Assembly (NCBI RefSeq): GCF_044647545.1
Contig: NZ_CP172818.1
From: Escherichia coli
Lineage (GTDB): Bacteria; Pseudomonadota; Gammaproteobacteria; Enterobacterales; Enterobacteriaceae
Reading direction: 5' to 3' (one strand)
Length of the DNA: 64,000 nt
Part shown: positions 7,959 through 51,445 of the stretch, piece after piece
Layout: every line of letters begins with the position of its first letter
How positions within the stretch are numbered: the stretch's first letter is position 1
Position numbers and translations under genes: made by a program
Notes under the pieces: generated by a model
What the model was told of the DNA's origin: nothing
The model's database searches: none
What the model saw: only the letters and a program-made list of their open reading frames with translations

Positions 7959-8699
7959 CAATAAGTTTTGTTTATCATATTATATAGACTTCTTTAATTT
8001 TTAATAATTAGCAGAATACATATTTAATTACTGTTGTATTCTAAAAATATTTATCTTCACCCCATTTAAAATAATCTAGGATTTTATTCAGAAAATAAAA
8101 AAGACCCGAAAAAATCCTTCCCCCCCAAAGGCGCTAATTCATCCATATTAACTCAAGACTTCATAGAAAATTTTCTTAACCCCCATATAGAGCCTCTCTA
8201 AGCCTATTATCCTTTTATTATCAAATCTCTAACCCATCTTTACCTATCTGCAAAAACACACACAAACCACTATTTTATTTTTTTTAAAAACGGAAAAAAG
8301 CATAAGGAAACGAAACAAATGAGAAAAATTTCAAAAAAAAAGAAAAATAGAAAAAAAATAATAAAAAAAACGAAAGCGAATACGAAAGGAAGAAAAAAAA
8401 AAACAAAAAATTTCAAATTCCCCAACCCACAGCCACAAAGCAAAACGAACAAACCTGAGGAACTTAAAGAAAAAGAGTATATGAAACTTAAACTAACACC
8501 TAGCTAACTATAGTAACCGAAGAAAGAACACAAAAAAGAAACAAAAATACAAAAAAAAACTAAACAAAAAAAAAAGAAAATCATAAAATTTTTATCTCAA
8601 CATAAAAAAAAAATTGAACAAAAAAAAAATGACCCCAAAAAAAACACCCCAAAAAACAACAAAAGGAACACAACAAAACAAACAAAAAACACCCCAACA
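7959..8699. other. anomalous non-coding low-complexity block: left part AT-rich, right part (about 8281-8699) strongly A-rich/C-containing on + strand; putative foreign or artefactual insertion
   Basis: Hand tally of 8521-8700: A about 68%, C 19%, T 8%, G 4%; A-runs of 9-11 nt; only poly-Lys/poly-Phe pseudo-ORFs; eutS-maeB spacer is 978 bp here. Boundaries approximate. Confidence 0.6.
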
Positions 8700-47520: not shown

Positions 47521-48582
47521 TTATTCTTGCGCGATTTGCCCATCGGGCCAGGCGTGAATCACGGCTTTGATCAGCGTCGCCAATGGAATGGCGAAGAATA
47601 CGCCCCAGAATCCCCACAAACCACCGAAGATCACCACCGATAAAATAATCACCAGCGGATGCAGGTTAACCGCTTCGGAGAACAACACCGGCACTAGCAG
47701 GTTGCCGTCCAGCGCCTGAATGATCAGATACACCGCGAAGCAGCTCCAGAATTCCGTGCCAGCACCAAACTGGAATAGCGCCACGCCAATCACCGGAATG
47801 GTCACCACAAATGCGCCAATGTACGGAATAAGAACCGAGAAGCCGACCAGCACCGCCAGCAGCAGCGAATAGTTCAGCCCGAAGAGTAAGAACCCCAGCC
47901 AGGTGGCGATCCCCACCACGATCATCTCCAGCACTTTGCCGCGGATATAGTTGGTGATTTGTTGATTCATCTCCTTCCACACCTGTCCTGCCAGTCCGCG
48001 GTTACGCGGTAGCACCCGACGAACGGCGTTCAGCATCTGCTCTTTGTCTTTCAGCAGGAAGAAGACCATCAATGGCACCAGCACCAGATAGACAGCTATG
48101 GTGAGCAAACCGACCAGCGAGGCGAGGGAAATTTTCACCACCGAATCGCCCATGGTCAGCATCCGACTGCGCATATTTTCGGCCATTGCATCAATAATGC
48201 CCGCGTCCATTAACGCCGGATAGCGGCGCGGCAACGTGGCGGCAAAGTCAGAAAGCTTATTGAGCATCCCCGGCATATCGCGAATTAAGTAGATGCCCTG
48301 CTGCCAGGCGATAGGCAATACCACGAACGCCATCAGTAGCAATATACCGACGAAAACCACCAATACAATCGACGTCGCCCAGCGGCGGGAGCAGCCAATA
48401 GATTGCAGGCGCACGGTTGGCCATTCCAGCAAATAGGCCAGCACAATAGCCACCAGCAACGGAGCAAGCAGGCCACTAAAGAAAAAGATAATGCCAAATC
48501 CGGCAACTAAAATAACCAGCAAGGCAATCGCTTCCGGGTCGCTAAAACGGCGGCGATACCATTGCATCAACATTTCGAGCAT
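47521..48582 (-). CDS. perM: AI-2E family permease PerM (formerly yfgO)
   Basis: 353-aa polytopic membrane ORF. Confidence 0.9.
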   Translation of the reverse strand: MLEMLMQWYRRRFSDPEAIALLVILVAGFGIIFFFSGLLAPLLVAIVLAYLLEWPTVRLQSIGCSRRWATSIVLVVFVGILLLMAFVVLPIAWQQGIYLIRDMPGMLNKLSDFAATLPRRYPALMDAGIIDAMAENMRSRMLTMGDSVVKISLASLVGLLTIAVYLVLVPLMVFFLLKDKEQMLNAVRRVLPRNRGLAGQVWKEMNQQITNYIRGKVLEMIVVGIATWLGFLLFGLNYSLLLAVLVGFSVLIPYIGAFVVTIPVIGVALFQFGAGTEFWSCFAVYLIIQALDGNLLVPVLFSEAVNLHPLVIILSVVIFGGLWGFWGVFFAIPLATLIKAVIHAWPDGQIAQE

Positions 48583-48735
48583 AAAGACCTTCCCTGAACC
48601 TCAAGAGCGGGATTGCGATCCGCAATTGTATCGAAATGTCACAAAAAAGACTTCGCTTTTTATGACGGATTCAGGAAACTGAAAAGTCATTTGAGTGGGC
48701 TAATCTTCGCCGTTACACTCAAAGGCGGCGCGGTG

Positions 48736-48763
48736 GGAACGATATTTCACAGTATCGGTCAAA
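48736..48763 (+). promoter_or_regulatory. sigmaE-type promoter for bepA
   Basis: GGAACga -N16- TCAAA (consensus GGAACTT-N16-TCAAA), about 30 nt upstream of bepA ATG. Confidence 0.5.
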
Positions 48764-48794
48764 TGACTATCTTCAGAAATACAGGATAGAGGTT

Positions 48795-50258
48795 ATGTTC
48801 AGGCAGTTGAAAAAAAACCTGGTTGCAACCCTCATTGCTGCTATGACCATTGGTCAGGTAGCCCCGGCGTTTGCCGACAGCGCAGACACCTTGCCGGATA
48901 TGGGAACCTCCGCAGGAAGCACGCTTTCCATTGGTCAGGAAATGCAGATGGGCGACTATTATGTCCGCCAGCTACGCGGCAGCGCGCCGTTAATTAATGA
49001 CCCGCTGTTAACGCAATATATTAATTCGCTGGGTATGCGTCTGGTTTCGCATGCCAATTCGGTTAAGACACCGTTTCATTTCTTTCTGATCAACAACGAC
49101 GAAATTAACGCCTTTGCTTTCTTTGGCGGCAACGTGGTGCTGCACTCTGCCCTGTTCCGTTATTCCGATAACGAAAGTCAACTGGCTTCAGTTATGGCGC
49201 ACGAAATCTCCCACGTCACCCAACGTCACCTGGCGCGAGCGATGGAAGATCAACAGCGCAGCGCGCCGCTGACCTGGGTCGGCGCGTTAGGTTCTATTTT
49301 ACTGGCGATGGCCAGTCCGCAGGCGGGGATGGCAGCGCTGACCGGTACACTGGCGGGAACGCGCCAGGGGATGATCAGTTTCACCCAGCAAAATGAACAG
49401 GAAGCGGATCGCATTGGTATTCAGGTGCTGCAACGCTCAGGATTCGATCCGCAGGCGATGCCGACCTTCCTCGAAAAATTGCTCGATCAGGCGCGTTACT
49501 CCTCGCGTCCGCCGGAAATTTTATTGACTCACCCGTTGCCGGAAAGTCGTCTGGCAGATGCCCGCAACCGTGCTAATCAGATGCGCCCGATGGTGGTGCA
49601 GTCGTCGGAGGATTTCTATCTGGCGAAAGCGCGCACACTGGGGATGTATAATTCCGGACGTAATCAGCTCACCAGTGATTTGCTGGATGAATGGGCGAAA
49701 GGAAACGTTCGTCAGCAACGAGCGGCGCAATATGGTCGTGCTCTACAGGCGATGGAAGCCAATAAATACGATGAGGCGCGTAAAACGCTGCAACCGTTAC
49801 TGGCGGCAGAACCTGGTAACGCATGGTATCTCGATCTGGCTACCGATATCGATCTTGGGCAAAACAAAGCCAATGAGGCAATCAATCGCCTGAAAAATGC
49901 CCGTGATTTGCGTACCAATCCGGTGTTGCAGCTCAACCTGGCGAACGCTTATCTGCAAGGCGGTCAACCACAAGAAGCGGCCAATATTCTGAATCGCTAC
50001 ACTTTTAATAATAAAGATGACAGCAACGGCTGGGATTTACTGGCACAGGCGGAAGCCGCGCTAAATAACCGCGATCAGGAACTGGCTGCGCGAGCAGAAG
50101 GTTATGCGCTCGCCGGGCGACTCGATCAGGCCATTTCCTTGTTGAGTAGCGCCAGTTCGCAGGTGAAATTAGGCAGCCTGCAACAAGCGCGTTACGATGC
50201 GCGCATCGACCAGTTGCGCCAGCTGCAGGAACGCTTTAAGCCTTATACCAAGATGTAA
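48795..50258 (+). CDS. bepA: periplasmic beta-barrel assembly-enhancing protease BepA (formerly yfgC), M48 peptidase + TPR
   Basis: 487-aa ORF, signal peptide, HEISH zinc motif. Confidence 0.93.
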
Positions 50259-50278
50259 TTCGCATTAAAGGAAGAACA

Positions 50279-50638
50279 ATGACCAAACAGGTAAAAATCT
50301 ACCATAACCCACGCTGTTCAAAGAGCCGGGAAACGCTGAGCCTGCTGAAAGAAAACGGCGTGGAGCCAGAAGTGGTGCTCTACCTTGAGACACCCGCCGA
50401 TGCGGCAACGCTGCGTGATTTGCTGAAAATGCTGGGAATGAATAGCGCTCGTGAATTGATGCGCCAGAAAGAGGATCTTTATAAAGAACTGAACCTGGCT
50501 GACAGTTCGCTTAGCGAAGGGGCGCTGATTCAGGCAATGGTGGATAATCCAAAGCTAATGGAGCGCCCGATTGTGGTCGCGAATGGCAAAGCGCGGATTG
50601 GTCGTCCACCGGAGCTGGTACTGGAAATCGTGGGTTAA
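50279..50638 (+). CDS. yfgD: ArsC-family protein YfgD
   Basis: 119-aa ORF, N-terminal catalytic-Cys motif HNPRCSKSR. Confidence 0.9.
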   Translation: MTKQVKIYHNPRCSKSRETLSLLKENGVEPEVVLYLETPADAATLRDLLKMLGMNSARELMRQKEDLYKELNLADSSLSEGALIQAMVDNPKLMERPIVVANGKARIGRPPELVLEIVG

Positions 50639-50668
50639 GAAGTGCTCCATCGCTAGTTGAAGCACATT

Positions 50669-50702
50669 GCCGGATGCGACGCTTGCCGCGTCTTATCCGG
50701 CC
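50669..50702. repeat. REP element
   Basis: gccggatgcgacgcttgccgcgtcttatccggcc. Confidence 0.8.
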
Positions 50703-50743
50703 GACGAATACTATGGGTGCATATCCGACAATAAACGTCTTGT

Positions 50744-51445
50744 CTACAGTTTCAGAATTTCTTTCACAAACGGAATGGTCAGCTTACGTTGCGCGGTAAT
50801 CGACGCACGATCCAGCTGATCCAGCGTCATAAATAACGTGCGCATTTCTCTGTCGAGCCGCTTCAGCAAGAAACGCCCCACATCTTCCGGCAGTTCAAAA
50901 CCACGCAAACGCGCGCGTAACTGTAGCGCCTGCAACTTATCTTCATCAGAAAGTGGCTGCAATTTGTAGATCTGCCCCCAGTCGAGTCGCGACGCGAGAT
51001 CCGGTAATCCCAGATTCAACTGCCGCGGTGGACGATCGCCGGTGATCAACAACCGTGTTTTGCCCGATTCCAGAATTCGATTGTAGAGATCGAAAATCGC
51101 CATCTCCCACAACTCATCGCCTGCAATACACTCAATGTTGTCGATACAGACCAGCGACAAATGCTCCATACCGTCGAGCACTTCCGGAACAAACCAGGTG
51201 CGTTTATCCAGCGGGACATAGCCCACCGCATCGCCACGCTGCGACAATTCCGCGCAAGCCGCGTGCAGCAGATGGCTGCGCCCCGCGCCTTCGCGTGCCC
51301 AGAGATAGATGTAACCGCTATGTTCCTGACGCAGCACGTTTTGCAGCGCGGCCAGTAAAGAGGAGTTATCCCCCGGCCAGAAACTTGCAAAGGTTTCGTC
51401 GTCAGGAAGATAAAGTGGCAAAGAGAGCTGTGCCGGTGTGTTCAG
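50744..51445 (-). CDS. hda: DnaA-inactivating factor Hda (AAA+)
   Basis: Track ORF is 248 aa from ATG 51490; I recall the functional Hda as 233 aa initiating at the in-frame CTG (51445). Either start gives the same AAA+ protein. Confidence 0.8.

Follow-up and report, generated by a model that had tools for sequence, protein, structure and literature searches.

Promoters recognised by sigma-E (RpoE, sigma-24) follow a well-described model. According to Rhodius 2006 (PMC1312014), this model comprises a -35 element of the form GGAACTTTT and an extended -10 element of the form (T/C)GGTCAAAA, separated by a spacer of 15-19 nt, with 16 nt strongly preferred. The same text gives a preference for a discriminator of 5 or 6 nt and for a purine start, a distance of 25-28 nt (mainly 26 or 27 nt) from the -35 element to +1, and A/T-rich upstream peaks at -48/-49 and -57/-58. 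The strong sigma-E promoters rpoHp3, micAp, rybBp and degPp have in common a GGAAC -35 element, a 16-nt spacer and a GTC-containing -10 element.

The closest described system for the locus studied here is bepAp1, formerly yfgCp, which is catalogued in RegulonDB and EcoCyc and belongs to the regulon of Rhodius 2006. Overexpression of rpoE was found to increase the expression of yfgC (bepA) 2.4-fold and that of yfgD 1.5-fold, and both genes were flagged as Rhodius regulon members in the same study (Bury-Moné 2009, PMC2731931). Lacoux 2020 (PMC7075262) refers to the 'sigmaE-dependent bicistronic operon bepA-yfgD'. In addition, the list of RegulonDB RpoE promoters in Table S4 of Shimada 2017 (PMC5493296) contains the entry 'bepAp1, forward, 2614090, AIPP(W), TIM(S)'.

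In this work we focused on a motif upstream of bepA in the window, by which we mean the whole stretch of 64,000 nucleotides of Escherichia coli chromosomal DNA that was analysed. The original prediction had described GGAACga-N16-TCAAA at positions 48736-48763 as a sigma-E promoter lying about 30 nt upstream of bepA, and had assigned bepA to the sigma-E regulon. Direct reading of the sequence showed the coordinates and the description to be exact, and the distance from TCAAA to the bepA ATG (48795) was measured as 31 nt. We conclude, with a probability of about 0.95, that the motif is the catalogued bepAp1, the sigma-E promoter of the bepA-yfgD operon. The sequence, the spacing, the evolutionary footprint, the catalogued transcription start site (TSS) and a sigma-E ChIP peak all agree with the promoter reading, and the regulon membership is backed by Bury-Moné 2009, Lacoux 2020 and further published statements. 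The sigma-E promoter of bepA is already known, and its recovery here is a correct but ordinary finding.

The elements of the promoter all lie on the plus strand. The -35 element, GGAACGA at 48736-48742, matches the consensus GGAACTT at 5 of 7 positions; read as GGAACgata, it contains the critical AAC core and carries GA instead of TT in its distal half. It is followed by the 16-nt spacer tatttcacagtatcgg (48743-48758), whose 3' end, cGG at 48756-58, forms part of the extended -10 element (T/C)GGTCAAAA. The -10 element TCAAA occupies 48759-48763, with its GTC core at 48758-60, and cGGTCAAAt agrees with the extended -10 element at 8 of 9 positions. A discriminator of 5 nt (tgact, 48764-48768) leads to the +1, an A at 48769, which corresponds to the converted RegulonDB start (about ±2 nt) and is a conserved A in the alignment described below. 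The spacer of 16 nt, the discriminator of 5 nt, the distance of 26 nt from the -35 element to +1 and the purine A48769 thus all take the values preferred in the published model, and a 5/6-nt discriminator and a purine start are also shared by the four strong promoters named above.

Two features set the bepA site apart from these strong promoters, namely GA in the distal half of the -35 element where the canonical strong sigma-E promoters have TT, and a G+C-rich upstream sequence where they have A/T-rich UP elements. No A/T-rich UP element was found in the segment 48720-48735, caaaggcggcgcggtg, which is G+C-rich. The distal GA together with the G+C-rich region from -40 to -55 leads us to predict a modest strength, and bepAp1 is thus probably a functional promoter of modest strength; the missing UP element bears on its strength and not on its membership in the class.

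The motif by itself discriminates only weakly. In the window, searched on both strands, the strict pattern GGAAC-N18-TCAAA occurred once, against 0.14 matches expected from shuffled sequences, and 14 of 100 shuffled windows contained at least one strict match somewhere. With up to two mismatches to GGAACTT-N16-TCAAA, 10 matches were found against 5.5 expected. The site stands above chance because of its placement, geometry and conservation, together with the experimental data, and not by virtue of the motif alone. One of the other sequences in the window, GGAACTTAAAGAAAAAGAGTATATGAAA at 8459-8486 on the plus strand, combines a perfect -35 element with a 16-nt spacer and has TGAAA in place of TCAAA, a single mismatch that leaves it without the GTC core.

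We read the bepAp1 entry in the RegulonDB list as an experimentally mapped start with strong transcription initiation mapping, given in U00096.2 coordinates. The offset from U00096.2 to NC_000913.3 was calibrated on two sRNA genes, cyaR (+1976) and micA (+1978), between which bepA is located. The step of 2 bp between these offsets presumably reflects the correction of gatC, near 2.17 Mb. As this would put the step before bepA, the offset of +1978 was applied, which places the TSS at 2616068, i.e. 26 nt before the bepA ATG (2616094), corresponding to position 48769 of the window. This is the same conserved A that was predicted independently from the alignment. A further calibrator, yfeYp, is good to ±1 nt only and points to a C with an adjacent G, for which reason we quote the TSS to ±2 nt; all conversion options place it 3-5 nt after TCAAA.

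We also considered bamCp, the second RegulonDB sigma-E promoter in the window, as a coordinate control and rejected it, as the window strain has an indel somewhere from bamC to bepA, which spoils the subtraction, and the consensus match is poor. Its TSS (2597036 in U00096.2; ChIP peak SigE_6 of Cho 2014) falls at about 31668 on the minus strand, inside dapA and approximately 149 nt upstream of bamC, and the spacing from bamC to bepA, mapped by eye, differs from that in K-12 by about 47 bp. The sequence upstream of this TSS is a poor match to the strict GGAAC-N16-TCAAA, with a possible GTCGAA -10 element, so that the pattern of the original prediction would miss bamCp.

Published genome-wide data were mapped onto the site. 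The sigma-E ChIP-chip region SigE_54 (2613790-2614190) covers the bepAp1 TSS (Cho 2014, PMC3923258, supplementary file 3), as does the RNA polymerase peak RNAP_1223 (2613740-2614090) of the same study, and sigma-E thus occupies the bepA site in vivo. A sigma-70 ChIP peak, SigD_1057, which is 687 bp wide, spans the same region (Cho 2014, PMC3923258), and in view of this overlap sigma-E is probably not the sole source of bepA transcription. In the genomic SELEX experiments with RpoE holoenzyme (Shimada 2017, PMC5493296), rybBp, micAp and rpoHp3 were recovered, whereas bepAp1 was not and appears in list A, the list of RegulonDB RpoE promoters missed by the method. Recognition by E-sigmaE alone in vitro, as assayed there, is not a defining requirement for a sigma-E promoter. 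List A also holds degPp, bamAp, rseAp3, bamDp and bamEp (Shimada 2017, PMC5493296), and as these promoters were missed as well and few classic sigma-E promoters are picked up by the assay, we regard the SELEX result as weak counter-evidence. The 2.4-fold induction of yfgC, which is modest, and the deviating distal -35 half also count on this side.

Downstream of the promoter, a 5' UTR of 26 nt (48769-48794, plus strand) contains the Shine-Dalgarno sequence AGGA at 48783-48786, within an ACAGGA that is at least 90% conserved; a search for RNA structure in this UTR gave no significant signal (z = +0.55). The first gene of the operon, bepA (yfgC; 48795-50258, plus strand), is an ORF of 487 aa that was assigned by the NCBIfam equivalog model NF052400 (742.6 bits; cut-off 570) and by RefSeq, and it is annotated as bepA in 5,425 E. 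coli genomes. The second, the ArsC-family gene yfgD (50279-50638, plus strand; TIGR00014), starts 20 nt after the bepA stop codon, and no terminator-like site was detected on the plus strand between 48300 and 50800. In the mechanism that follows from this reading, the anti-sigma factor RseA is cleaved in response to unfolded outer-membrane proteins, and the sigma-E set free joins core RNA polymerase. As expected from general knowledge of such factors, region 4 of sigma would read the -35 GGAAC, and region 2 would read and melt the -10 element at GTCAAA, 16 nt downstream. Initiation at A48769 would then yield an mRNA with a 26-nt leader followed by bepA and yfgD, and the outcome would be an increased amount of BepA, a periplasmic protease/chaperone associated with BAM.

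The site was then compared among E. coli genomes. Among 5,426 complete E. coli genomes, 5,425 matched a stretch of 601 bp around the site with at least 95% identity, the flanks being annotated as yfgO and bepA, and the exact 34-mer from the -35 element to +1 was present in 4,852 of the 5,426. Within the 34-bp core promoter just one polymorphism is common, the spacer allele C48748A, found in 570 genomes, and the two alleles, which differ at this one base, cover 5,422 genomes; the remainder consists of two genomes with a single mismatch elsewhere, one with a deletion and one without the region. GAAC and GTC are thus effectively invariant in E. coli. The segment 48690-48800 is 100% identical to the O157:H7 and O55:H7 genomes. 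The window represents another E. coli lineage than K-12, from which nothing substantive differs at bepAp1: the yfgO-bepA intergenic region is that of K-12 MG1655 except at 48773 (+5), which is T instead of the C of K-12. It is this near-identity that allows the mapped start to be transferred to the window.

The single genome with a deletion is that of E. coli strain A24 (NZ_CP028751.1, about 2460-2562), which has lost approximately 187 bp between two CGATA microhomologies. The deletion corresponds to about 48558-48744 of the window; the start of yfgO, all of the intergenic region and the GGAAC -35 element are gone, while the spacer, the -10 element and the +1 are kept. Strain A24 is also without hyf-focB. 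Either the promoter has been knocked down naturally in this strain, or the assembly is in error here.

For the footprint at the level of the family, upstream regions were aligned from 80 bepA loci representing distinct Enterobacteriaceae species, with BepA proteins 84-99% identical, and column conservation was computed over 76 distinct Enterobacteriaceae sequences. GAAC (48737-40) was conserved in 96-100% and GGTCAAA (48757-63) in 87-100% of these sequences. Values for the first G of GGAAC (48736; 42%), the distal GA of the -35 element (62-71%), the middle of the spacer (24-63%) and the discriminator (22-47%) were lower, and A48769, the +1, was conserved in 92%. This refines the GGAAC motif of the original prediction: its first G is weakly kept, and the constrained core is GAAC...GGTCAAA. 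A palindrome within the spacer, CGATA-N8-TATCG, was considered as a regulator site and ruled out, as it is not conserved.

Of 81 loci, 78 have GAAC-N17-GTC at 56-61 nt upstream of the start codon, compared with 0.0035 occurrences per locus expected from the empirical background, and the distance from GAAC to GTC is exactly 17 nt in 77 of these 78; Salmonella carries GGAAC-N18-TCAAA too. The sigma-E core was missing upstream of bepA in three of the 81 Enterobacteriaceae loci. Two of them (L041 and L056), from Enterobacteriaceae UBA7338 / 'Escherichia sp. ESNIH1', have in common a shorter, rearranged intergenic region of 151-152 bp. The third, from Kosakonia arachidis (L052), has a decayed motif, GAAAT...GCTC, while its sister species retain the motif.

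Beyond the family, orthologues were drawn from a search among 50%-identity representatives, as a direct homologue search gave relatives of at least 86% identity only. The core was present in three of the six evaluable distant lineages: at 71% BepA identity it was found together with GGTCAAA, at 51% it lies within the upstream gene, and in a Photobacterium carnosum cluster with 49% BepA identity it accompanies a retained yfgO...bepA-arsC synteny. These are the only occurrences of GAAC-N17-GTC in 46.4 kb of distant loci, both strands included. The core was not found at the bepA loci of Ferrimonas (47%), Tolumonas (46%) and Gallaecimonas (43%). The sites that were found, which precede bepA orthologues with identities as low as 49%, resemble promoters of RpoE/AlgU-type ECF sigma factors of other gamma-proteobacteria, and judging from their sequences they may be used as such. 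Unlike the E. coli site, that of Photobacterium has GTCGTA as its -10 element and is located 97 nt from the ATG.

Several other explanations of the locus were weighed, and only one of them carries real weight. According to this explanation, bepAp1 is real but secondary, and bepA would be transcribed in unstressed cells mostly from a sigma-70 (or sigma-S) promoter with TACACT as its -10 element and a start near 48726. The TACACT box (48714-48719, plus strand) was noticed by its conservation and may be the -10 element of a separate sigma-70/sigma-S-type promoter that is not part of bepAp1. Conservation reaches 95% for T1, 96% for A2, 75% for C3, 96% for A4, 86% for C5 and 96% for T6, so that the key positions of a -10 element (T1, A2, A4 and T6) are kept in 95-96%, and the box is also found in Salmonella. 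The spacing between the box and GAAC ranges over 15-29 nt, i.e. the box behaves as an independent element. A TTnnCn-like -35 element is located 16-18 nt upstream of it in most genera, and 65 of 74 loci have a -35-like partner that scores 3-4 out of 6; in the window the -35-like sequence is TTGAGT at 48691-48696, 17 nt upstream of TACACT, and is weak. The sigma-70 peak SigD_1057 covers the TACACT region, and the induction of yfgC by sigma-E, just 2.4-fold, also fits a second source of transcripts. The box is absent from one locus (L086) in which bcp precedes bepA with the same orientation, where read-through could give basal expression. On the other hand, no published TSS near 48726 was found in the sources accessible as text, and the two hexamers are weak, scoring 8 of 12 in E. 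coli and falling short of the threshold of our consensus scan. Moreover, the 687-bp peak could stem entirely from the divergent yfgO promoter, and TACACT could be a transcription-factor site instead. We therefore consider a dominant second promoter as a tentative proposal that is somewhat more likely to be wrong than right; as it is compatible with bepAp1, the two are not mutually exclusive.

A perfect 10-nt inverted repeat, AGTCATTTGA / TCAAATGACT, is present at 48685-48694 and 48759-48768, with the arms 64 nt apart. The arm at 48685-48694 copies the sigma-E -10 element and discriminator in the opposite orientation. It is very unlikely that sigma-E acts here in both directions, with the inverted TCAAATGACT serving as a minus-strand -10 element, preceded by GTAACgg-N15, that drives yfgO/perM. 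A perfect inverted repeat of 10 nt within 212 bp has a rough expectation of about 0.02, and GTAAC resembles GGAAC; however, the inverted copy is confined to Escherichia, with unrelated sequence at this place in other genera, most genera have GTAGC in place of GTAAC and thus lack the essential AAC, and yfgO is not among the RegulonDB RpoE promoters as listed in Shimada 2017. The repeat is probably fortuitous, because it is found only in Escherichia.

It is highly improbable that the functional promoter consists of the overlapping sigma-70-like hexamers TTCACA (48746-51) and TATCTT (48768-73), 16 nt apart, instead of the sigma-E elements. The consensus scan of 48300-50800 returned no other sigma-70-type site than this pair (9 of 12 matches), but one such site is to be set against 2.8 expected in shuffles, the hexamers coincide with alignment columns of low conservation (22-63%) and are missing from other genera, and the resulting start would be near 48780, approximately 11 nt downstream of the catalogued TSS. 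Finally, the idea that the motif is a chance match of a short degenerate pattern and that sigma-E induces bepA indirectly has a negligible probability: the relaxed motif is common (10 matches against 5.5 expected), 14% of shuffled windows hold a strict match and genomic SELEX with RpoE missed the bepA site, yet the fixed 17-nt spacing with bipartite conservation across genera whose spacers have diverged, the optimal geometry, the catalogued TSS 5 nt after the -10 element and the sigma-E ChIP peak are jointly incompatible with it.

The best-conserved part of the yfgO-bepA spacer is a block of 39 bp, AATTGTATCGAAATGTCACAAAAAAGACTTCGCTTTTT, at 48624-48662, which is 80-99% conserved in Enterobacteriaceae and still present in the three lineages whose sigma-E motif has been lost. 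An RNA element was considered and rejected for this block, as Rfam gave no hit and neither strand showed a folding signal. The block may be a promoter or operator of yfgO (TACAAT on the minus strand at 48630..48625). Taken together, the TACACT box and the block are apparently uncatalogued elements; on the basis of their sequence and conservation, the former might be a sigma-E-independent basal promoter of bepA and the latter an operator or promoter for yfgO and/or bepA, a joint reading that we put forward with less than even confidence.

In conclusion, the analysis restates known biology, namely that BepA, which acts in the quality control of outer-membrane proteins with the BAM complex, is wired into the envelope-stress response. 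As a positive control, it shows that a sigma-E promoter can be called from raw sequence alone. What is mildly new here is the TACACT box and the 39-bp block near yfgO. The footprint puts numbers on the constraint, which falls on GAAC and GGTCAAA and spares the first G and the distal -35 half, and the sites found in distant genomes suggest that the sigma-E wiring of bepA may reach at least as far as a Vibrionaceae orthologue.
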